Assembly: GCA_041305285.1 (NCBI GenBank)
Contig: JBFYLU010000075.1
Span: 1-25,128, forward strand
Direction of reading: 5' to 3'
Origin: Nanobdellota archaeon
Lineage (GTDB): Archaea; Nanobdellota; Nanobdellia; Pacearchaeales; GW2011-AR1
DNA: 25,128 nucleotides
The position numbers and the translations under genes are program-made. Of the stretch, positions 2,559 to 23,132 are shown piece by piece (the first letter of the stretch is position 1; each line of letters begins with the position of its first letter). The notes beneath the pieces are model-generated. The model searched no databases, was not told the DNA's origin, and worked only from the letters and a program-made list of their open reading frames with translations.

Positions 2559-2858
2559 CTAATAACTCGGCATCAATTCATTGTGCCCAAACTGAATCAT
2601 CAAGTCAATTTCTTTCTCAATCTCTTTATTTAATACAGGAGTATCACACGCTCCAAAGCACGAATCCATCCAAATAATAAACTCAACCTTGCCTTTAGTA
2701 TTTTCTACAAGGTAATCAACAACAGCAGTAGCATATGGCTTTAAACCATCTGGAAACTGCAATAAAACCAGCTTGGCATTGTTTTTCTTTATATTTGCAA
2801 TTACTTTGTCTAATTCCAAGTCATAGGTTTCATTTAATTCCTGTATTGTTCTTTGCAT
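2559..2858 (-). CDS. dph2: Diphthamide synthase Dph2, N-terminal domain only (99 aa; split gene or fragment)
   Basis: VLLQFPDGLK, SCFGACD and IQFGH match Dph2 domain 1. Full-length archaeal Dph2 is ~340 aa. TATA begins 29 nt upstream (2887). Confidence 0.8.
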   Translation of the reverse strand: MQRTIQELNETYDLELDKVIANIKKNNAKLVLLQFPDGLKPYATAVVDYLVENTKGKVEFIIWMDSCFGACDTPVLNKEIEKEIDLMIQFGHNELMPSY

Positions 2859-2973
2859 AGAAATTCGATATAATCTGAGTTTTTAAATTAATTGATAGCT
2901 TAACTGATTTATTAAAATAACATTTCAAACATCATTGAGAAACTATTGTAATCAAAAGAACTGGTTTTTAATT

Positions 2974-3711
2974 CTATTTCTTTAGAGCTTCAAGAATTTG
3001 AGATTCCAAACCTGTAAGTTTCAGAGTTTCCAAAGCTCTCTGAATATCTTTAGAAGTATATGCTTCTACTCTTGATTCTTTTCCACTTGGCTTCGCGACT
3101 TCGTCGCTCGCACGTACCCCACGAGCCTCATTATCGTCAAGTTCGAGGTCCCAGTTGCCACCAATACCAGACCTGTCGCCTTCGCCAACCCCGCAAAGCC
3201 ACGCTTGTCTTGCAAATGGCGTGTTTCCAGAATTTGCTAAATAAAATTGAATATTGTCAATTCCATTTTCTTTAAGGAATTCGCCGTATTCTTTTGCATT
3301 CTTGCCAAAGGCAAAGTTTGTTAGTGCTTCATCTGCAAATCTCCTTGTTGGAATTTCAGTGTTTGTTCTCTTTACAGAGTCTGCAAGTGATTCTTCTACT
3401 TGTTCATCAGTTAAATAAAAATCCTTTCTACTTCTGTGACAATCTGTTGCTTGTTTTGCATTTGCCATTATTGGAGATTTCTTTGATAAAAAAATTCCTC
3501 TATCTGAATCATAAATAAATGCCTCTCTTGTCCAGTTTCCCCTTCTTGAAACGCTTGAATCTGAACCTTCTTGAACTCTTAATCCTGCCTGCTCTTCAAG
3601 AGATATAACTCTATAGCCATTGCTTTCCAGAGCTTCTTTTGCTTTATCAAAAGCTCCGACAGCATAAGCTGAATGAAGTTTTCCTCTTGTTACATCTTGT
3701 GTTATTTCCAT
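2974..3711 (-). CDS. Putative DGR target (variable) protein, copy 1, predicted C-type-lectin-fold C-terminal variable region
   Basis: Paralogue of 15417-16040. The C-terminal segment ARQAWLC-(20 variable aa)-NEARGVR resembles the W...S...RGVR variable region of DPANN DGR targets (recalled family pattern). Downstream GAA-loop hairpin. Confidence 0.7.
   Translation of the reverse strand: MEITQDVTRGKLHSAYAVGAFDKAKEALESNGYRVISLEEQAGLRVQEGSDSSVSRRGNWTREAFIYDSDRGIFLSKKSPIMANAKQATDCHRSRKDFYLTDEQVEESLADSVKRTNTEIPTRRFADEALTNFAFGKNAKEYGEFLKENGIDNIQFYLANSGNTPFARQAWLCGVGEGDRSGIGGNWDLELDDNEARGVRASDEVAKPSGKESRVEAYTSKDIQRALETLKLTGLESQILEALKK
3095..3192 (-). mobile_element. DGR-like variable region (3133-3192), conserved IMH-like segment and GCGAC-GAA-GTCGC hairpin (3095-3107)
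   Basis: Local GC-rich patch. 15 of 20 variable codons end in C/T. A perfect 5-bp stem with GAA triloop (minus strand) lies 25 nt downstream of the variable core. Confidence 0.65.
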
Positions 3712-3814
3712 GCTTTTTCATAAGAAATGGGATATTTAAAACTTTATATTGTTACTTCTACAAAGTTTGCACAAACTTCACAACATGATAAGCAATTCCA
3801 GTTGCCAATGCTCC

Positions 3815-3991
3815 TTAATTAGGCAAAGCAGGTGGCTGAGGGACTGAACTTCCAGGAATCAAAGAACTAACATCCCCGCCTGAAATCCACAAGTAAATTC
3901 CTATTCCAGCAGCAATTAAGACTGCAATAACTAATATCCAAATCCATAAACTGCTCTTTTTTTCTTGCATTTCTGTTGTTTGTTCATCCAT
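3815..3991 (-). CDS. Small single-pass membrane protein (58 aa) with C-terminal QPPALP motif
   Basis: ATG at 3991 is 1 nt after the stop of the upstream gene. The TM segment WIWILVIAVLIAAGIGIYLW is nearly the same as that of 4980-5705. Confidence 0.7.
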   Translation of the reverse strand: MDEQTTEMQEKKSSLWIWILVIAVLIAAGIGIYLWISGGDVSSLIPGSSVPQPPALPN

Positions 3992-3992
3992 T

Positions 3993-4940
3993 TTAATAAT
4001 TAATATGTCTTCCAATTAAACAAGGCGGAATAGCGTTGTTAAACTGATTCCTAATGGCAGTATTTGTTTCTTCATAAGCCAGGGCCCCACTTTCTCCTCC
4101 TTGTTCTTCCATTAAGTCTGCAACTTCTTGCAAATCACTTTCTGGAACTAAGCTAGCATATTTTTGAGCCACGCATCTTGAGGCAGCATCACAATCTGTT
4201 TGTGAATTATAATCATCAGCATTATTTAAGTCACACTCTTCATATGCAAGTTCCTCATAATAATAATCTTCAATAGTTTTTCTTAATCCAGTATTATTCC
4301 CATTTCCAGGCAAAGGTGGAGGAGAAATTCCACTTGACTCTCCAAGAGTGCAATCATTTGTAACCTTAACAATTAATCCTAATCCTATAGAATCTGAAGT
4401 CAAATGCTCATTCATAAAATTATCATTAACTAAATTACTAGACCACTCCTGAACAATCTGCTCAAAATGATATACTTTTTCAATATCACAATCTCTTGTA
4501 ATGTCCTCAAAACTACTTCCACTCATGTCAGGAGTTATAGTTACAAAATTCCATCCTGCACTAAGCTGCCGCATAGACAATGGCATGTAATCCTCTAAAG
4601 TGGAATATTTTAATATCCCGTCTTTATTAGAATAAACCCACATAGCACTTGTTAATGCAACATCATCATCAATATTAGCAGACATATCCACCTCTGGATG
4701 AATCTGAACATATCTTCTAAGATTTGGAGCATAATACCACACTGCTTTGATATCTGATGCTTGAATTTCACTGTCACTTGTTATTGCTTCATTAGGCATA
4801 ATTCCTGCAATAATATTCCATCCTTTTACAACACTTACTTCCACACTATAAGGAGCATCATTCCCACCAGTCATTGTATTTGCACAGACTAAAACTCCCA
4901 GACTAATCAAAAGAATTAATGTAGCAATTACTTTTTTCAT
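3993..4940 (-). CDS. Secreted/surface protein (S-layer-like, acidic, Cys-containing)
   Basis: N-terminal signal peptide MKKVIATLILLISLGVLVCA, two GWN beta-strand motifs (VKGWNII, SAGWNFV), a PPPLP linker and an acidic C-terminal domain. Confidence 0.7.
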   Translation of the reverse strand: MKKVIATLILLISLGVLVCANTMTGGNDAPYSVEVSVVKGWNIIAGIMPNEAITSDSEIQASDIKAVWYYAPNLRRYVQIHPEVDMSANIDDDVALTSAMWVYSNKDGILKYSTLEDYMPLSMRQLSAGWNFVTITPDMSGSSFEDITRDCDIEKVYHFEQIVQEWSSNLVNDNFMNEHLTSDSIGLGLIVKVTNDCTLGESSGISPPPLPGNGNNTGLRKTIEDYYYEELAYEECDLNNADDYNSQTDCDAASRCVAQKYASLVPESDLQEVADLMEEQGGESGALAYEETNTAIRNQFNNAIPPCLIGRHINY

Positions 4941-4979
4941 ATATTCTAAAAAACATCCTTCTTTTTATAATTATCCATT

Positions 4980-5705
4980 TTACCAGCTAACAGCAGGATA
5001 TTCATTTAAGAAATGCTGAGTTACTGGATTATTAATATCAGCTGAATCACTATAATCATAAGAAACAGAGCCGTCTTCATTGCTTGTTCTGTCAGACTCA
5101 AGGATAAATACCTGCTCATATTCACTTCCTTGGCTGGTAAACCATAAAAGTTCATGGATTTCTAGACTATAAACACTGGTTCCAGGAACAGGAGAAAGTT
5201 CAGGAAACATTGCTCTGGTAACTTCCTGAAAAGTATCCTTGCCTTTGCTAAAATTTCCAAGTGTCACAAAGATAGTTTTTTTATTTAAATTATTAAAATA
5301 TGTTAAAAAAGTTCCGCTAGAGCACACCTCTCCACTAACATTAATTTCATTTCCTTCAACATCAGTCATCCCAGGTTCATAATTAGTGCATTCCTCTTGC
5401 CCTGCTTCTGCTGACTCTAAAACATAATCACTAATTGTTTCTGGAAACTCAGAAGTTTCTAGGATATCTGTCTGAGAAATTATCTCCTCTTCTCCTGCCT
5501 CTTCTTCATTGCCAAGAATCTTCCCATAATCTGCAAATAAGTAAATTCCAATTCCTATTGCAATTAAAACCACTAAAACAAGTGTAATCCAAATCCAAGC
5601 CCTGCTTCCTTGTTCAGGAACTTCTTCTGCTGTTGATGAAGGAGCCTGCTCATTGTATGTCTCATTTTCTGCATTGTTTGTTTCATCTGGGGTTTCTTCA
5701 TCCAT
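4980..5705 (-). CDS. Membrane-anchored acidic surface protein
   Basis: Acidic N-tail, a single TM (AWIWITLVLVVLIAIGIGIYLF) and an acidic ectodomain with two Cys. Confidence 0.7.
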   Translation of the reverse strand: MDEETPDETNNAENETYNEQAPSSTAEEVPEQGSRAWIWITLVLVVLIAIGIGIYLFADYGKILGNEEEAGEEEIISQTDILETSEFPETISDYVLESAEAGQEECTNYEPGMTDVEGNEINVSGEVCSSGTFLTYFNNLNKKTIFVTLGNFSKGKDTFQEVTRAMFPELSPVPGTSVYSLEIHELLWFTSQGSEYEQVFILESDRTSNEDGSVSYDYSDSADINNPVTQHFLNEYPAVSW

Positions 5706-5781
5706 AATATTTCATGAAATTAAATATTCTATATAAATCTTTTGAAGCAGGGTATTGTATTAATTAAAACATAGTAAGAAA

Positions 5782-5789
5782 TTATTAAA
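5782..5789 (+). promoter_or_regulatory. Candidate TATA box for the hairpin RNA
   Basis: aagaa-a-TTATTAAA-aaccc. +29 nt gives 5811, one base before hairpin 1, and no plus-strand CDS follows. Confidence 0.5.
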
Positions 5790-5811
5790 AACCCTTGATT
5801 CTTATGAAAAT

Positions 5812-5920
5812 TGGTTAAGCTTCGGCTTAATCAGAGATAGAACTTCGGTTCTCATCTCACGCTTAACTTCGGTTAGGCACTGGAGGCCAGAAACTTCGGT
5901 TACTGCCTCCTACTTTTTTT
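5812..5920 (+). ncRNA. Candidate small structured RNA: four tandem C(UUCG)G hairpins followed by a T-tract
   Basis: Hairpins at 5812-5833 (9 bp), 5834-5858 (10 bp + bulge), 5861-5878 (7 bp) and 5882-5910 (11 bp with a mismatch and a bulge). All four loops are TTCG closed by C-G. G-U pairs work only on the + strand. T7 tract at 5914-5920. Confidence 0.65.
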
Positions 5921-5946
5921 ATTTTAATAAAATATTCTCTTAGATT

Positions 5947-6411
5947 TCAATTATGCTTCTTATGATTATTCTTCCAAGTTAATCTTTTAAGACTGAATGT
6001 TTTCTGCAGGCTTATTCTATCCAATAGATACTCTCCAACAAATGCAAAAGGAACGGCAATTATAAACGCAGTTAAAACAATTTTAAGAGTTATTGCATCT
6101 CCTATTGCAAGAGAAAAAGCAATCAAATCCTCAGCAACTCCTAAAACAACCCCAAATATCAAGAACTCTAAAAAAACCTCAAGATTCTTGTATTTCTTAT
6201 TTAAATTAAATAATTTCAAAAAATCAATTCTATCCACCACATACTCTCCTAAAAAAGCAAATGGAAGAGTAACTAAGAATATAATCAGCAAGATAAAAAG
6301 AGTTATTGGTTCATTTGTAATAAACTTAATTAAAATAATATCTTCTATTATTCCAAGAATTATCCCTCCAATTAAAAATTCCAAAAAGATAAATAATCTA
6401 TTGTTTTTCAT
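5947..6411 (-). CDS. 4-TM membrane protein with internal tandem duplication and intramembrane acidic residues
   Basis: Two ~65-aa repeats: FLEFLIGGIILGIIED...PFAFLGEYVVDRI and FLEFLIFGVVLGVAED...PFAFVGEYLLDRI. TATA begins at 6440. Confidence 0.75.
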   Translation of the reverse strand: MKNNRLFIFLEFLIGGIILGIIEDIILIKFITNEPITLFILLIIFLVTLPFAFLGEYVVDRIDFLKLFNLNKKYKNLEVFLEFLIFGVVLGVAEDLIAFSLAIGDAITLKIVLTAFIIAVPFAFVGEYLLDRISLQKTFSLKRLTWKNNHKKHN

Positions 6412-8229: not shown

Positions 8230-8466
8230 ATGAGCATAACTTTGAGCCCATGTGAAGAAAGAGTTTTTGTCACAGAATACGCAATAACAGAAAGAATGCA
8301 TCTTAAAGATATTCCAGAATCACAATTAAAACAAATTATTGATGTCCTTAAAATTACTTGCTCTTGTGCTGATAATTCTTGTTATAAAACCATTGAAGAA
8401 ATGGTGGATAATTTTCCTCCTAAATTAGATAAAGCAATACTAAGATATTATGGACTTTGTTATTAA
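8230..8466 (+). CDS. Hypothetical protein (~78 aa)
   Basis: ATG is 1 nt after the infB stop. No motif recognised. Confidence 0.5.
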   Translation: MSITLSPCEERVFVTEYAITERMHLKDIPESQLKQIIDVLKITCSCADNSCYKTIEEMVDNFPPKLDKAILRYYGLCY

Positions 8467-9551
8467 TTGCTTCTCAATCTAAGTTTTCTTTGAGTGGCTT
8501 TGAACTCTGGTGTTGGCTCTTTTCTTAAAAAAGCAGGCATTGCAAAGTTAAAAAATTCCTGTCCTGCTTTGTCTATCATTGCATCTGTTCCAACAAGCTC
8601 CAATTTCTTGGCACATGCATATTTTAAATCACATGAATCACATTTTCTTCCTCTTTCAGGATAAATATTCCCTGCTGTGACAGCTTCTTCTGTTCCTATA
8701 ATCATCTTTAAAACTTCTTCAAAATGCTCATTTTTCCTGTCAGACGCAACAACAACATTTGGCATTGTTTTTATCTTTGGGTTATTTGCATCAATTCCAA
8801 GAGCATCAATCATGAAAAATTCAACAACAAAATCAGGATGAATAAAATTAGGATGCCCCATGAATGTCTCAACAACTTGTTTTTCTAGTCCTAATCTCTC
8901 TGCAATTTCAGGATAATGTTTGCATAAGGAACACAATCCAACATTATACATTGTTAGTTGAGGGTCAAAAAAAGATTTCATGTCACCAACCCATGGATTT
9001 CCTGACTTGTAGTCTCTAATCACAACTTTTCCATCTCTTTTTCTAATATCATCCATTCTTCCTGTAAATCTCCTGTTTCCAAGAACAAAATCAAAAGGCA
9101 ATTCACTAAACTCTGGTTTTCCTTCCTTCATAAGATAATCAAACAAAGGCACGCATATTCTTGGAAGAGTTCCATTTACCTGCCATGCTTCTCCATCAAA
9201 CTTCCAATTAATTAATCTCCCTTCATTTCTTTCAGCTTCCTGCTCTAGTTCTTTTGTTGCATACTCTTCTCTTAGTTTCTTGTCTGCTATGATTATTCTT
9301 TTCCATTTCCCTTGAGAGTAGTTTGAAAAACTCTCAGCATCATGGTATTTTTTTCCAGAACTCTTCTTTGCAACCTCATCAGGTGTTCCTAATTTATCCC
9401 AGAAATTATCTATTAGAGCATGCAATAAAGAGCCTCTAACATAAGCAGATAATCTCAATGGCTTTGGCTTGTCTGAATCAACATAATTAAGATAATACCT
9501 CATTCTGCAATAATTAGCAACATTAATCCTTGTAGCACTCCACTTAATCAT
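8463..9551 (-). CDS. PD-(D/E)XK nuclease, Cas4/AddB/RecB-like with 4-Cys Fe-S motif
   Basis: N-terminal NYCRMRYYL, GSLLH, GRMD...IRDYKSG, QLTMY and C-terminal CDSCDLKYAC (C-x2-C-x5-C). Confidence 0.85.
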   Translation of the reverse strand: MIKWSATRINVANYCRMRYYLNYVDSDKPKPLRLSAYVRGSLLHALIDNFWDKLGTPDEVAKKSSGKKYHDAESFSNYSQGKWKRIIIADKKLREEYATKELEQEAERNEGRLINWKFDGEAWQVNGTLPRICVPLFDYLMKEGKPEFSELPFDFVLGNRRFTGRMDDIRKRDGKVVIRDYKSGNPWVGDMKSFFDPQLTMYNVGLCSLCKHYPEIAERLGLEKQVVETFMGHPNFIHPDFVVEFFMIDALGIDANNPKIKTMPNVVVASDRKNEHFEEVLKMIIGTEEAVTAGNIYPERGRKCDSCDLKYACAKKLELVGTDAMIDKAGQEFFNFAMPAFLRKEPTPEFKATQRKLRLRSN

Positions 9552-13429: not shown

Positions 13430-13518
13430 TGTCTTAATAGCATAAGCGCGACTTTTATAAATTTTTTGAAAAAATAAACAGCAATAAAACTTATATAATG
13501 CAATTATTTTTTAAAGAA

Positions 13519-14373
13519 ATGGTGAAGATATACTCTCATTCTAGAATAAGCACTTTTGAACAATGCAGATTAAAATTCAAGTTCAAGTATATTGACAAGA
13601 TTCTTCCTGAAATAGAAAAATCAATAGAAAGCCATCTCGGAACTTGCATTCACAAAACAATGGAATGGATTTATTCCCAGGTGAAAATTGGAGAGCTTCC
13701 TTCAATAGATGATGTTATAGTTGATTACTCCAAGCACTGGAAAAGGGAGTATGTTCCTGGAATGATTATAGTGAATGAATCTCTAACTGACAAGGATTAC
13801 TTCAATAAAGGAATCCAGTTTCTCCTTGATTATTATTCAAAGCACTATCCTTTTGATGACGGAACAATTGCACTTGAAAAAGAAATAAGAATTAAGCTGG
13901 ATGAAAAAGGAAAATACGAGATAATTGGGTTTATTGACAGACTTGTAAAAAATCTTCAGACAGGAGAGTATGAAATCCATGATTACAAGACAGCAAACTC
14001 TCTTCCAACTCAAGAAAAAATGGATAGTGACAGGCAACTGGCTTTGTATGCAATTGCAATCAAAGAAATCTATGGCTATGCCAATGAAGTCTGCTTAATC
14101 TGGCACTATCTTGCGCATAATCAAAGAATCTGCTCTAAAAGAACCAATGAGCAATTAAACAAATTAAGGCAAGAAACTCTTGAATTAATAAAGCAAATAG
14201 AATCAACAAATGAATTCCCCCCAAATAAAGGAAGACTATGCGACTGGTGCGAATACAAGCAAATGTGCCCTGCATGGAACACTTCAGAAGAAAACAAACA
14301 AGATAATCAAGTTAAAGAAATTAAAGTAGATGTGAATAAATACCCGACAATCTCAAAGTATATCAAGGATTAA
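13519..14373 (+). CDS. PD-(D/E)XK nuclease, Cas4/RecB-like with 4-Cys Fe-S motif
   Basis: YSHSRISTFEQCRLKFKFKY, GTCIH, GFIDRL...IHDYKT, QLALYA and CDWCEYKQMCP. Start moved to ATG 13519 because CTTATATA begins 29 nt upstream. Confidence 0.88.
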   Translation: MVKIYSHSRISTFEQCRLKFKFKYIDKILPEIEKSIESHLGTCIHKTMEWIYSQVKIGELPSIDDVIVDYSKHWKREYVPGMIIVNESLTDKDYFNKGIQFLLDYYSKHYPFDDGTIALEKEIRIKLDEKGKYEIIGFIDRLVKNLQTGEYEIHDYKTANSLPTQEKMDSDRQLALYAIAIKEIYGYANEVCLIWHYLAHNQRICSKRTNEQLNKLRQETLELIKQIESTNEFPPNKGRLCDWCEYKQMCPAWNTSEENKQDNQVKEIKVDVNKYPTISKYIKD

Positions 14374-18979: not shown

Positions 18980-20869
18980 TTATACGTCTAATTCAGCCTC
19001 ATGAGCATTTTCTTCAATAAACTCTTTTCTTGATTGAACATCATCACCCATTAGCATGCTAATAGTCTGGTCAGCCTCCAATGCATCTTCAATATAAACT
19101 TTCTTGATTTTTCTTGTCTTTGGATTCATTGTTGTGTCCCATAACTGCTGTGAGCTCATTTCTCCTAATCCCTTGAATCTTGTAACATTGGTTGTGTTTA
19201 ACTTATCTGTTAATTTCTTTAATTCCTCTTCAGTATAAACATAATGATCTGTCTTTTTCCTGACTCTGTATAAAGGAGGCATTGCAATAAACAAGTTTCC
19301 TTTTTCAATTAATTGAGGCAAGAACCTGTAAAAAAATGTCAATAAAAGTGTTGTTATGTGCTCTCCATCAACATCTGCATCTGCCATGAGAATAATCTTG
19401 CCATATCTTAGTCTATTGTAATCAAAACTCTCTCCAACTCCTGTTCCAACAGCAGTAATAAGATTTGCTATTTCTTCGCTTGATAATGCCTTGACTGGAT
19501 TTGATTTTTCAACATTCAGTATTTTTCCTCTTAATGGCAGTATTGCCTGGATATTTCTATCTCTTCCCATCTTGCTTGAACCAGCTGCTGAATCTCCTTC
19601 AACAATATACAATTCAGTATCTTCTGTTTTTTTATTTGAGCAGTCAGCAAGTTTTCCAGGCAGTCCCCCAAGAGAAAAAGCACTTTTTCTCCTGACTAAT
19701 TCTTTTGCTTTTTTTGCTGCAAGCCTTGCCCTTGCTGAATCCAAAGACTTCATTGCAATTTTTTTTGCAATTAAAGGATTCTCCTCAAAAAATTCAGTTA
19801 AAGCAGATGAAACAATTGAATCAACTAATCCTTTTAATTCAGAATTTCCCAGCTTTGTCTTTGTCTGTCCTTCAAACTGAGGCTCTGGGATTTTCAAGCT
19901 GATTATTGTAGTATTTCCCTCCCTCACATCATCTCCAGTAAGAGAATCATTCTTCAAAAGATTGGTTTTCTTTGCATAATCATTTATTGCTCTTGTCAAG
20001 GCAGTCTTGTATCCAGAAACATGAGTTCCACCCTCAACAGTGTTTATTGTGTTTACAAAACCAAAAATATTTTCTTGATATCCTGAAGTATATTGTATTG
20101 CAACTTCTATCACAGTATTCTCCAAGACTCTCTTGAAATAAATTGGCTTGGTGTGTAGAACTTCCTTGCTCCTATTTATCCATTTCACAAATTCAATTAA
20201 TCCTCCGCTTGCATAAAACTCTTCTTGCTTGTTTTTTTCCTCGTCTTTTAATTTGATTTTTAATCCTGCATTAAGAAATGCAACTTCTTTGAATCTTGTC
20301 TCGAGAACCTTGTAATCAAAAATAATTGTGGAAAAAATCTGCTCATCAGGCCAAAAAGTAACTTTTGTTCCAGTGTCATTATCATTGCATTTTCCAACAA
20401 CTTTTAATTTTGTTGTGGGATTTCCTCTTGAATACTCTTGCTGATGTATTTTTCCCTCTCTTTTTATTTCAATAATTAGTTTTTTTGAAAGAGCATTGAC
20501 ACATGAAACACCAACCCCATGCAATCCTCCTGAAATCATATATGATTTTTTGTCAAATTTTCCACCAGCATGCAGTTTTGTAAGTGCAACTTGAACAGCA
20601 GGAACCTTTAATTGAGGATGAATATCAACTGGAATTCCTCTCCCATTATCCTCAACACTCACACTTCCATCTCTGTTTATTGAAACAAGAATTTCACTGC
20701 AATATCCTCCAAGCGCTTCATCAACTGAATTGTCAACAACCTCATAAACCAGATGATGCAATCCATCTTTGCCAGTGCTCCCAATATACATAGCCGGACG
20801 CTTTCTTACTCCTTCTAAGCCATCCAATACCTTGATTGAATCAGCACCATAATCACTATTTGAGGCCAT
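18980..20869 (-). CDS. gyrB: DNA gyrase subunit B
   Basis: GLEGVRKRPAMYIG, EVVDNSVDE, DNGRGIP, GGLHGVGVS, EGDSA, PLRGKILNV, DADVDG and RFKGLGEM. Confidence 0.97.
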   Translation of the reverse strand: MASNSDYGADSIKVLDGLEGVRKRPAMYIGSTGKDGLHHLVYEVVDNSVDEALGGYCSEILVSINRDGSVSVEDNGRGIPVDIHPQLKVPAVQVALTKLHAGGKFDKKSYMISGGLHGVGVSCVNALSKKLIIEIKREGKIHQQEYSRGNPTTKLKVVGKCNDNDTGTKVTFWPDEQIFSTIIFDYKVLETRFKEVAFLNAGLKIKLKDEEKNKQEEFYASGGLIEFVKWINRSKEVLHTKPIYFKRVLENTVIEVAIQYTSGYQENIFGFVNTINTVEGGTHVSGYKTALTRAINDYAKKTNLLKNDSLTGDDVREGNTTIISLKIPEPQFEGQTKTKLGNSELKGLVDSIVSSALTEFFEENPLIAKKIAMKSLDSARARLAAKKAKELVRRKSAFSLGGLPGKLADCSNKKTEDTELYIVEGDSAAGSSKMGRDRNIQAILPLRGKILNVEKSNPVKALSSEEIANLITAVGTGVGESFDYNRLRYGKIILMADADVDGEHITTLLLTFFYRFLPQLIEKGNLFIAMPPLYRVRKKTDHYVYTEEELKKLTDKLNTTNVTRFKGLGEMSSQQLWDTTMNPKTRKIKKVYIEDALEADQTISMLMGDDVQSRKEFIEENAHEAELDV

Positions 20870-21129
20870 TTTATATGTTTTTTTGTAAGATTTTTAATTT
20901 AAAATTTGCAAATTTTTCACAAATTATAAGAGTATAAATGAATATTCCTTTAAAAAGCTTGCTACATAAATTTAGCTTTTTTAAGGCTTAAAAACATCAA
21001 ATTTACTTTTTCTTTTTTATTACGTGGATAAAGAAAACTAACTAAAAACACGCCAAAAAACCTATTTTGAAGTAACTGAGTAGTGACAAAAATAGAAACT
21101 TTTATAAATAAAAGAATGCACCAAATAAT

Positions 21130-21411
21130 ATGAAAAAGATAATACCTGCAGTGCTTGCAATAGTAACAATAATCTTAATTGTTAGTCTTTTGTACCTTAT
21201 GATTCAGGAAAGAATGACTGGAGCAGTAATAAAAAATCAATATACTTACACAAAAGCAATATGCACTGAAACCAATTTTTGCCAGGATTATGAAATCAAC
21301 TGCAACAATGGAGGAATTGTTGAAATGACTCCAATCACAGGAGCTTTTGTCCAGCATAATTCAAATTGGCAAGACCCAAGGGAAAACAAATCAAGAATAA
21401 CCTGTGAATAA
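21130..21411 (+). CDS. Small membrane-anchored protein with Cys-containing ectodomain
   Basis: N-terminal TM, TGAV motif, and C-x4-C-x6-C plus a terminal Cys. TATA at 21101. Confidence 0.65.
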   Translation: MKKIIPAVLAIVTIILIVSLLYLMIQERMTGAVIKNQYTYTKAICTETNFCQDYEINCNNGGIVEMTPITGAFVQHNSNWQDPRENKSRITCE

Positions 21412-21420
21412 AAAGAATTA

Positions 21421-21717
21421 TTATTTAGATTTCTTCTTTGCCTTTAGATTCAGGTTTTCTGTTGTCAGGCTTCTATGCAATCCACCAACACCTGGAAAAA
21501 TCATTGCAGTTCCAATCAGCAAGGATATAAGTGCATAGTAATCACTTGAAGTGCACATTAATCTGTCTAATTGAGCTGGTTGTTCAACTGTTAATGTCTC
21601 TCCCTGAACTGTCTGAGTTATAGGAAGAACATTGCATGGACGTGAAAGAGCATATCCTATTAAAAGAGCTCCGATTAAGATAAAAACAACACTAATGATT
21701 AGATTTTTTATGTTCAT
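21421..21717 (-). CDS. Small 2-TM membrane protein
   Basis: Two hydrophobic segments flank a loop with two Cys. Confidence 0.6.
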   Translation of the reverse strand: MNIKNLIISVVFILIGALLIGYALSRPCNVLPITQTVQGETLTVEQPAQLDRLMCTSSDYYALISLLIGTAMIFPGVGGLHRSLTTENLNLKAKKKSK

Positions 21718-21780
21718 TGAAAATCACTTCTTTTTATTTGAATACTTATAAGATAATTAAGAATTAAAGCTTTTTAAATA

Positions 21781-21936
21781 TTATTTCTGCTCTATCCATC
21801 TAACTTTCCTTCTTTTCATAGCCATGTTTTTTCTGCACTTAGAAGAGCAAATATAATGAATGCTTCCATCATTCTTTACAAGGGTTATTCCCCTGTGAAA
21901 ATCATACATTTTTCCGCAATAAATACATTTTGGCAT
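21781..21936 (-). CDS. rpl24e: 50S ribosomal protein eL24 (L24e), 51 aa, not in ORF track
   Basis: Own translation: MPKCIYCGKMYDFHRGITLVKNDGSIHYICSSKCRKNMAMKRRKVRWIEQK. It has CxxC...CSSKC and sits in the conserved L7Ae-S28e-L24e order. Confidence 0.95.
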   Translation of the reverse strand: MPKCIYCGKMYDFHRGITLVKNDGSIHYICSSKCRKNMAMKRRKVRWIEQK

Positions 21937-21937
21937 T

Positions 21938-22228
21938 TTAAGTATACGAGCCCTTGCTCACATTAGATTTAATTCTTCTTGCTTCAATCTCAGTTTCTCT
22001 GAGCATTAATATGTCTCCAGGTCTTACAGGCCCCTTTACATTTCTTCTCATGCTCCTTCCTTCATCTCTTCCTGCTTGAACTAAGCATTTTACCTGAGTA
22101 ATCTCTCCTCTAAATCCAGTTCTTCCAAGAATCTCCTGCACAAGTCCAGGAACTACCTGCCCTAAAAGCTTCTCGCTACCTTTAGAACCTGCTTGTTTTA
22201 CTTCTTGTTTTTTCTGTTCCTTTGCCAT
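21938..22228 (-). CDS. rps28e: 30S ribosomal protein eS28 (S28e)
   Basis: [16 protein letters not shown] and [25 protein letters not shown]. Confidence 0.96.
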
Positions 22229-22248
22229 TTTATATTAAGATTAAAATA

Positions 22249-22548
22249 TTATTTAACTGCTGAGAGTTCTTTTTCTGCGTCACCAGCTTCAATAACTGCA
22301 ACAGATGAAGCAGCAACTGGAATTCCAACAGCGATTCCTAATTTTTGCTTGCTGTCAACTTCCTTGCATAGAATCTTTTTCTCTTTGCATAAAACTGGCA
22401 AATGAGCTACAATTTCTTTTGGGCTTACATCCCCTGCATAAACAACTAGCTTTGCAATCCCTCTCTCAATTGCTTTTGTAACTTCATTGGTTCCTTTTTC
22501 TATCTTTCCTGTCTTTCTTGCCTTTTCAATAATTCCGTATACGTCCAT
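22249..22548 (-). CDS. rpl7ae: Ribosomal protein L7Ae (eL8), short N-terminus
   Basis: [45 protein letters not shown] and LGIAVGI. Confidence 0.95.
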
Positions 22549-22591
22549 TTTTTCTTGAGTTTATTTAATTGAGAACAATAAGAAAAGTATA

Positions 22592-22615
22592 ACCCTCGCT
22601 TATCGCTCATCGGAT
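22592..22615 (-). promoter_or_regulatory. Kink-turn in 5' leader of the rpl7ae operon
   Basis: The minus strand reads AUCC-GAU-GA-GC-gauaa-GC-GA-GGGU: C-stem, 3-nt bulge, tandem G.A/A.G and NC stem. It starts 29 nt after the TATA start (22644). Confidence 0.8.
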
Positions 22616-22700
22616 AAAATATTCAGAAAAAATGAATTTATAAATGTTTCTTAGAGTGCAAAACAATAATCCTTAAATAATAACCTTTTGATTAAAAGAA

Positions 22701-23132
22701 ATGGCAAAGACTAAAAAAAGACTCAGAATAATCCCTGTTTTGGAAGTCCTTGAGAAAAATCACGTAACAAAAATGGAAAAGGGCAAATATCTTGAAAGAT
22801 TTGTTTTTCCTCAAGAACATGATTTGCCAAGAGTTAATTGGAAAAAATTAGTATCAGACAGAAGAAAACATGATGCTTATTCTGGAAGTGACGAACATTA
22901 TCAGCCATATTCTGATGTTTTAAGATATTTAAGAATAAAAGGAATCTTGACAACTCCTGGAACTCCTGGAAGTTATTTTCTTTTAGGAAGTGGAATGGAC
23001 TTATCCCCAAATACAGGACATGGAGCAACAATGCATTTTGTTAGAGAAGGAGATGCAGAAGAATATGCTGCAGCTGAATTTGGAAGAAAAAGATACAATT
23101 TATTCCTTTGCAAAAATCTAAAAAAGATTTAA
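22701..23132 (+). CDS. Hypothetical protein (143 aa)
   Basis: ATG with CTTAAATA 29 nt upstream. No motif. Confidence 0.6.
   Translation: MAKTKKRLRIIPVLEVLEKNHVTKMEKGKYLERFVFPQEHDLPRVNWKKLVSDRRKHDAYSGSDEHYQPYSDVLRYLRIKGILTTPGTPGSYFLLGSGMDLSPNTGHGATMHFVREGDAEEYAAAEFGRKRYNLFLCKNLKKI

Follow-up and report, generated by a model that had tools for sequence, protein, structure and literature searches.

Organization of the locus

The stretch of DNA analysed here (hereafter the window) spans the 25,128 nucleotides (nt) of contig JBFYLU010000075.1 from a Nanobdellota archaeon (assembly GCA_041305285.1) and encodes aIF5B, S6e, L7Ae, S28e, L24e, aIF2-gamma, Kae1, gyrases A and B and two PD-(D/E)XK nucleases, at a G+C content of 30%–38%. 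On its plus strand, at 5812–5910, four hairpins capped by UUCG abut one another between a TATA-like box and an oligo-T tract, and the whole unit (5776–5925) is probably a self-contained gene for a small, nearly fully paired non-coding RNA, which we consider the best explanation overall. The genes on either side, 4980–5705 (241 amino acids, aa) and 5947–6411 (154 aa), both lie on the minus strand.

The hairpins can be read directly from the sequence. The first (H1, 5812–5833; TGGTTAAGC-ttcg-GCTTAATCA) has 9 base pairs (bp), including one G-U, and the tip AAGC-UUCG-GCUU, and the second (H2, 5834–5858; GAGATAGAAC-ttcg-GTTCT(c)ATCTC) has 10 bp with a 1-nt bulge and a purine-rich 5′ arm. After the linker AC, the third (H3, 5861–5878; GCTTAAC-ttcg-GTTAGGC) has 7 bp, including one U-G, and the tip UAAC-UUCG-GUUA, and after the linker ACT, the fourth (H4, 5882–5910; GGAGG(c)CAG(a)AAC-ttcg-GTT(a)CTGCCTCC) is long, purines prevailing in its 5′ arm (GGAGG...) and pyrimidines in its 3′ arm (...CCUCC), and runs into the U-tail. 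H1, H3 and H4 correspond to hairpins a, b and c of the family described below, and H2 is an inserted hairpin. The element ends in a 3′ tail with an oligo-T termination signal (5911–5925), consisting of TAC, seven T (5914–5920), A and TTTT.

Folding of the plus strand with RNAfold gives the same four hairpins as both the minimum free energy and the centroid structure (−43.9 kcal/mol), with a z-score of −5.6 against 200 dinucleotide shuffles, none of which folded as well; the minus strand reaches just −32.3 kcal/mol, and the G-U pairs of H1 and H3 form on the plus strand only. All four CTTCGG hexamers of the window fall inside 80 nt of the element, compared with 1.67 expected window-wide, and the element has a G+C content of 0.47 vs 0.33 for the window. 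A small open reading frame (ORF) running through the hairpins was considered and rejected, as the ATG at 5805 reaches a TAA after four codons. A preliminary description made from the window alone had already noted the four back-to-back hairpins, the plus-strand-only G-U pairs, the T7 tract and the minus-strand orientation of both neighbours, and all of these observations hold.

A family of related elements in DPANN archaea

A near-identical 9-kb contig of assembly GCA_041305245.1 carries the same element, including H2. Homologues were sought by synteny, in loci encoding aIF5B 79%–91% identical to the protein of the window, and by two pattern scans. In four of the five independent relatives, aIF5B is immediately preceded by a related element with the same orientation, namely in L005 (51–126), L003 (3877–3945; L004 is the same), L006 (3882–3949; L007 is the same) and L008 (3691–3760). 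All four have three hairpins, and in the alignment H2 of the window is one clean 25-nt insertion. Judging from this comparison, the four-hairpin form is therefore not ancestral and H2 would be a lineage-specific addition. The best aIF5B relatives are labelled Pacearchaeota, Nanoarchaeota or Nanobdellota, and the window belongs to a DPANN archaeon.

One genome per species of the GTDB was scanned with a three-loop pattern, which gave at least 120 matches. Among the 120 listed, 22 are hairpin arrays (20 passing the hairpin filter and the variants L103 and L120), all from assemblies labelled Nanoarchaeota, Woesearchaeota, Pacearchaeota or plain ‘archaeon’; the remaining ~100 stem from chance or from tandem coding repeats of bacteria. 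With a slightly stricter pattern, the metagenomes of the Joint Genome Institute yielded at least 91 loci with true arrays. Together, synteny and the two scans bring the family to more than 100 related loci, which is a lower bound, and wherever the source organism is named, the copies come from DPANN archaea (Nanoarchaeota/Woesearchaeota/Pacearchaeota). The same three-loop pattern applied to IMG/VR produced 42 matches, all of them tandem coding repeats or chance, and no hairpin arrays. The family covariance model R1 scores members at 60–89 bits and the window copy at 53.3 bits (5834–5918, E ~4e-8 to 4e-9), aligning H2 as hairpin a; the window holds no second R1 match with E < 0.1, even with filters off. 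R1 also recovered two-hairpin versions, one with a UUUU loop.

The scans brought up several unrelated sequences. A bacterial 16S–23S spacer (L187, 555–625) contains three or four small tandem UUCG-capped hairpins (GAGAAC-ttcg-GTTCTC, GAAGAC-ttcg-GTCTTC and TGAAAC-ttcg-GTTTCA); being bacterial and scoring just 36 bits with R1, it was set aside as a convergent look-alike. With regard to possible mimicry of an rRNA hairpin, L187 is the sole match that bears rRNA, and the DPANN loci analysed contain none. The loose pattern also matched tandem repeats containing ACTTCGGT (L136, 548–900; L188, L205, L288; and a set from Actinomycetes), among the unrelated repeats being a 23-nt unit with 15 or more repeats on a contig of Avoscillospira, a GTTAAGGAAACTTCGGTTTCCTT array and a ~21-nt repeat found over many contigs of a single Actinomycetes metagenome-assembled genome (L061, L084, L101, L109, L113, L135, L138, L157).

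That a genome holds several paralogous copies, each kept at its own orthologous position, is strongly supported. Different copies occur on two contigs of one assembly (L158, L167), and two copies share a contig in L190, L208, L210, L212 and L216. Copies on the same contig agree at 86% of positions over 112 nt, the common stretch covering the promoter and the RNA only (~110 nt). The possibility that the RNA sits within a larger repeat or mobile element was considered and rejected, since conservation ends at the promoter and the terminator. Distinct paralogue types are found in many assemblies, and each has a synteny of its own: the first starts with ACUUAAC followed by UUAUCUGAC, another with GUCUAAC followed by GCUURAC and adjoins aIF5B, and a third, beginning with AUUCAAC, adjoins tRNA-Ser, the signal recognition particle (SRP) RNA and a PC4-like gene. 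The positions of the elements are orthologous across species in which aIF5B is 70%–91% identical. The homologues that the preliminary description had recommended seeking across DPANN archaea were found at abundant loci, in several copies per genome and, as shown next, with strong covariation.

About 13 of the ~100 elements lie no more than ~100 nt from a true contig end, above the expectation for contigs of a few kilobases. They include L005 (51–126), L094 (13–98), L125 (45–129) and L081 (4959–5037 of 5121), as well as L173, L176, L178, L198, L212, L218, L230, L234 and L240. This suggests that assemblies break at the multi-copy element.

Anatomy and covariation

The anatomy of the family was measured on 33–34 representatives less than 88% alike. 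Hairpins a, b and c have median lengths of 7, 8 and 12 bp, the a–b and b–c linkers have medians of 0 and 2 nt, and the core spans 66–78 nt (median 72). Hairpin c is 72% purine in its 5′ arm and 23% in its 3′ arm. The conserved unit is three hairpins (short, short, long) followed by a U-tail; the four-hairpin array that the preliminary description took as the unit holds for the window copy but not for the family. Among metagenome arrays passing the hairpin filter, 85 have three hairpins, four have four, one has five, two have six and one has eight, and the arrays of L112, L242 and L248, in which short units alternate with long ones, resemble the short-long-short-long order of the window. The tips are near-invariant (alignment A2), hairpins a and b carrying AAC-UUCG-GUU and hairpin c UUCG-GUU, an invariance in part imposed by the search patterns. 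The patterns left some 37 hairpins unconstrained, namely those of the syntenic loci (five), the extra ones in longer arrays and those of copies recovered by the model alone, and ~35 of these carry UUCG by our count.

Pairing was assessed on alignment A2, which was made with MAFFT and not fitted to any structure. RNAalifold finds in it three hairpins with 25 pairs, 18 of which show compensatory changes. By counting, 7 of 10 pairs in hairpin c show such changes. Paired cells amount to 93.8% vs 78.6% in shuffles and double-change cells to 160 vs 48.5, with none of 500 shuffles attaining any of the pairing measures; sliding the 3′ partner by 1–3 columns lowers pairing to 24%–54%. Family-wide, there are 107 G-U cells and 9 A-C cells, and TTCG occurs 102 times vs twice for CGAA, which shows that selection acts on the RNA of one strand. 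These comparisons strongly support selection on the structure in the family. The preliminary description had claimed such selection from the window stems, a claim now borne out, though provable only with homologues; its point that G-U pairing works on one strand only is borne out as well.

In the five syntenic sequences, the MAFFT gap fell inside hairpin a, so that the stems were compared by eye. Hairpin a reads UGAUUAAGC/GCUUAAUCA in L005, with A-U where the window has G-U, vs GUCUAAC/GUUAGAC in L003, L006 and L008, with two-sided changes at three pairs relative to the window. Hairpin b is GCUUAAC/GUUAAGC in L003 and, with compensatory change, GCUUGAC/GUCAAGU in L006, and hairpin c is GGAGGUUGGAU/GUUUAGCCUCC in L006 vs GGGUUAGAAU/GUUUUAACCC in L003.

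Transcription signals

The promoter of the window element (5776–5792, plus strand) combines GAAA, resembling a B recognition element (BRE; 5778–5781), with the TATA-like box TTAAAAAC (5785–5792), which begins 27 nt ahead of the first paired base, and it is kept in the four orthologous loci (alignment A3). The family promoter consensus is AAA-nnn-TTTAAAWA, with the TATA start 27–29 nt before the first hairpin in 27 of 32 representatives, and a TTTT run begins 0–10 nt past the last pair in all 34. The orthologues retain ATAGTAAGAAAnCnTTAAAAACC upstream and the T-tract downstream. Behind that tract, aIF5B keeps a box of its own, AGAAAYSTTTTTAAYCT, ~30 nt before its ATG, present also in the relative L002, which has no element. 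For aIF5B of the window, the TATA-like CTTTTTAA lies 30 nt ahead of the ATG, a spacing resembling that of the element, in line with the likeness to protein genes noted in the preliminary description.

Archaeal promoters have a canonical spacing, and archaeal termination requires oligo-T, not hairpins. Because the TATA box sits at this spacing, transcription would start at or just before hairpin a (predicted at ~5812–5814 for the window copy), so that the RNA would consist essentially of the hairpins and a U-tail. The predicted RNA would be very stable, with a length of ~100–110 nt for the window copy and ~70–100 nt for the family. The hallmarks of a stand-alone archaeal small RNA gene are present, with BRE/TATA at the canonical distance, oligo-T and covariation on one strand, and on these signals the elements very probably form a family of transcribed, structured small RNA genes. 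The stand-alone unit for an undescribed, very stable RNA envisaged in the preliminary description is accordingly supported by homologues, promoter, T-tract and covariation alike.

Search for known RNA families

The 4227 models of Rfam 15 gave no match in the window at gathering thresholds, and only chance-level matches on the element with E up to 10, the best being ctRNA_pT181 (22 bits, threshold 56) and STnc210 (17.6 bits, threshold 100). On 20 other family loci, Rfam with E up to 1 found nothing on members. According to ARAGORN, the window has no tRNA, and in 36 loci no element overlaps one, ordinary tRNAs lying nearby. A tRNA or tRNA-like identity was rejected in view of three or four independent hairpins without a closing stem, as was identity with the SRP RNA or a tRNA, both of which occur separately in the same loci. 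C/D-box and H/ACA guide RNAs were likewise discarded: no Rfam snoRNA or small RNA model passes (the sole snoRNA-type match on the element is ceN108, with 13.9 bits for a threshold of 50), an internal pocket is missing from the hairpins, and those of the window are flanked on the 3′ side by ACG, ACU or UAC rather than ACA. A full-text search of the searchable literature, including motif strings, found no description of the family. The impression that no recognized family fits is thus upheld. Neither the family nor its modular architecture with UUCG throughout seems to have been described, and the gene is of a known kind, a structured small RNA with a transcription unit to itself and possibly CsrB-like in design.

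Genomic context

The orientation of the flanking genes is random, the four neighbour orientation classes among 47 elements comprising 16, 11, 10 and 10 cases, with convergent genes flanking 10 of the 47, and the upstream gene lies on the opposite strand, facing away, in 35 of 67 cases. In 18 loci, aIF5B lies a median of 124 nt downstream with the same orientation; other neighbours are aIF2beta (five loci), an MMR_HSR1 ribosome-type GTPase (five or six loci), tRNAs and the SRP RNA. In such reduced genomes, the position of paralogues beside translation and stable-RNA genes is weak evidence. The ORFs within 2.5–4 kb of 25 and then 105 elements were clustered all-against-all, which revealed paralogue-specific synteny only (aIF5B, a Dph fragment, PC4-like, GTPase, aIF2beta, DUF424).

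Paralogues occur in stable-RNA clusters at L163 (1145–3179), L195 (10071–11023) and L198 (49–644); two of these join the SRP RNA, tRNA-Ser(GCU) and the element, and another consists of the element followed by two tRNAs. In the Pacearchaeota locus L104 (247–3585), aIF5B is 1112 aa long and its P-loop (GHVDHGK|C...) is split by an intein with a LAGLIDADG-type motif (FFAGLIDTDGYV), the RNA element still lying upstream.

The window element lies at the edge of, or inside, a variable island (2559–6411) between a diphthamide-synthesis-like ORF (99 aa, 2559–2858, minus strand) and aIF5B, much like tRNA genes beside islands. The island was compared with L002, L003, L006 and L008. In the window, it holds ORFs of 245, 66, 315, 241 and 154 aa with no Pfam match; L006 has the RNA element only, and L002 and L008 a 130-aa gene. 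Elsewhere in the window, an apparent gene desert at 20869–22701 contains a cluster conserved in archaea, L7Ae (99 aa), S28e (96 aa) and L24e (51 aa) (21781–22548, minus strand), and two small membrane-like ORFs at 21130–21411 (plus strand) and 21421–21717 (minus strand). The PD-(D/E)XK (Cas4-like) genes at 8463–9551 (minus strand) and 13498–14373 (plus strand) flank the S6e/aIF2-gamma region, as they do in L002 and on the P0007 contig; no CRISPR array or cas genes were found near those of the window.

Nature and possible function of the element

With linkers of 0–2 nt and closed tetraloops, the RNA offers virtually no single-stranded sequence and therefore could not act by base-pairing with a target. 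Whatever reads it would instead recognize the shape and the tip of the hairpins. The lower stems drift with compensatory change, whereas AAC-UUCG-GUU-like tips appear to stay and to be repeated two to eight times per transcript, and for this reason we tentatively propose that the RNA is a protein-binding platform, a reading that we hold with less than even confidence. Such a platform would be multivalent and serve a hairpin-specific protein as a scaffold or a sequestering sponge. The long last hairpin with its U-tail might combine termination with 3′ protection, and the 5′ hairpin might shield the RNA against 5′–3′ decay.

Several observations weigh against this interpretation of the element as a small RNA gene with a protein-binding role. 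The invariance of the tips is partly built into the search patterns with which the family was collected, and UUCG, the most stable cap, may be favoured for that reason alone where the genome is AT-rich. Expression of the element is deduced from transcription signals and covariation. The closest-but-one relative, L002 (aIF5B 87% identical), has no element at the orthologous site or within 9.7 kb, and the copy beside aIF5B is therefore dispensable or has moved. No protein common to all copies emerged from the ORF clustering around either 25 or 105 elements, and the variable hairpin number could fit a processed precursor as well.

A precursor or array RNA cut to single hairpins, which would act as type III-like antitoxin units, guides or decoys of nucleases or immune effectors, seems unlikely to us. 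The modular build of two to eight units and the short/long alternation in three loci are in keeping with it, and identical tips would suit a unit-recognizing nuclease, but the units are not direct repeats of each other and no toxin gene, cas gene or further nuclease gene regularly accompanies the elements; the PD-(D/E)XK genes of the window are housekeeping genes in synteny with a single paralogue. An antitoxin-like or guide role, as offered in the preliminary description, accordingly finds no support among the neighbouring genes. Transcriptional punctuation, whereby the array and T-tract would form a strong (bidirectional) terminator or insulator against read-through in a compact AT-rich genome and the RNA itself would have no role, is a rather improbable alternative. 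The last hairpin and U-tract do resemble an intrinsic terminator, the window element lies 3′ of the minus-strand gene 5947–6411 with a T4/T5 run following on the minus strand too, and about a fifth of elements sit between convergent genes (the 10 of 47 above). Yet a terminator would not need the consensus promoter found at a fixed distance in nearly all copies, nor, by established knowledge of archaeal termination, the hairpins; the one-strand bias of G-U over A-C and of TTCG over CGAA argues against bidirectional use, all orientations are about equally common, with the upstream gene often facing away, and a 25-kb window with about 25 genes holds just one such element. The simple bidirectional terminator, which the preliminary description had itself named as a competing outcome, is therefore not what the orientation counts and the element's own BRE/TATA indicate.

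The 18 loci with aIF5B close downstream on the same strand, and the copies near aIF2beta, the ribosome-type GTPase, tRNAs and SRP RNA, would be expected of a cis-acting leader or attenuator of the downstream gene. We nevertheless regard this as very unlikely, given that a tract of five to eight T separates the element from aIF5B, that aIF5B has its own conserved TATA-like box even where the element is missing, that a minus-strand ORF intervenes in the window, L008 and L142, and that the genes downstream of most paralogues are unrelated or absent from that strand. Least credible, and in our estimation very remote, is a selfish element spreading in intergenic DNA in the manner of repetitive extragenic palindromes (REP) or miniature inverted-repeat transposable elements (MITE), an option also raised in the preliminary description. 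Multiple copies, including pairs on five contigs, the many copies within ~100 nt of contig ends and the varying hairpin number give it a repeat-like appearance; against it, same-contig copies differ at 14% of positions and share promoter and RNA only, positions are orthologous across species (18 loci adjoin aIF5B), distinct paralogue types persist across many assemblies, the stems evolve through compensatory change, and apart from the hairpins themselves, neither terminal inverted repeats nor target duplications were observed.

Returning to a stand-alone RNA read by a protein, a more speculative extension, which we think has a small but real chance of being correct, is that the RNA, multivalent and resistant to nucleases, forms one half of an unrecognized ribonucleoprotein (RNP) peculiar to Woese-/Pacearchaeota-type DPANN cells, in which a dedicated protein would read the invariant tips and which would function in translation or ribosome control or at the symbiont–host interface. 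The former idea stems from the paralogues adjoining aIF5B, aIF2beta, the ribosome-type GTPase, tRNAs and SRP RNA; under the latter, a stable decoy RNA might be delivered to the host or titrate a host factor. DPANN archaea are uncultivated, genome-reduced symbionts, and to our knowledge their non-coding RNA repertoire is almost unexplored. Against this background, the family is abundant, multi-copy and strongly covarying, has its own promoter and is without a model in Rfam 15. For a regulatory RNA, it is unusual in being fully paired, with UUCG on every hairpin and a modular number of hairpins, a design which offers a definite starting point in the search for an RNA-binding protein or RNP new to DPANN archaea, and the covariance model R1 is a ready marker for annotation of their genomes. 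Even if the RNA were merely a very stable by-product, the family would still explain recurrent contig breaks and GC-rich islands in assemblies.

Comparison with known systems

The element shares particular traits with several known systems. As in intrinsic or bidirectional terminators, the last hairpin has a G-rich 5′ arm and a C/U-rich 3′ arm and is followed by a U-tract, but the family adds its own promoter, at least two extra hairpins, selection on one strand and positions unrelated to gene ends. Like REP/MITE, it consists of short palindromic intergenic units, several per genome, from which it differs in its fixed promoter and terminator, orthologous positions, divergent paralogues and covarying stems. 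Tandem structured units in variable number followed by a terminator are also the mark of ToxI-like arrays of type III toxin–antitoxin systems; here, by contrast, there is no adjacent toxin gene, direct repetition of units or evident processing site, and downstream of the elements lie the genes of aIF5B, of a PC4-like protein or of a GTPase, or else unrelated genes, with no shared nuclease. The Hfq-type three-hairpin small RNAs of bacteria (DsrA, RyhB) are similar in size, hairpin number and a terminator hairpin with U-tail, and have single-stranded seed regions where the archaeal family has linkers of 0–2 nt.

Among archaeal RNAs, a similar setting is that of HgcC, HgcE, HgcF and HgcG, the GC-rich small RNAs that Klein et al. 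reportedly described in AT-rich archaea in 2002, which are likewise G+C-rich structured islands in an AT-rich genome with their own promoter; the element nonetheless matches no Rfam model of these or other RNAs, even with E up to 1–10. In overall design, a putative parallel is offered by bacterial CsrB, RsmY and RsmZ, which are also stand-alone genes with a promoter and a terminator hairpin and carry a variable number of repeated stem-loops with one short motif, the stems drifting while the motif stays and no base-pairing with targets being needed. In CsrB, the loops present a GGA motif as a single strand to a known partner, CsrA, whereas in the archaeal family the tetraloops are closed and the part that appears to be kept comprises the UUCG loop with its two or three closing pairs. 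The likeness would be one of design by analogy, not of homology.

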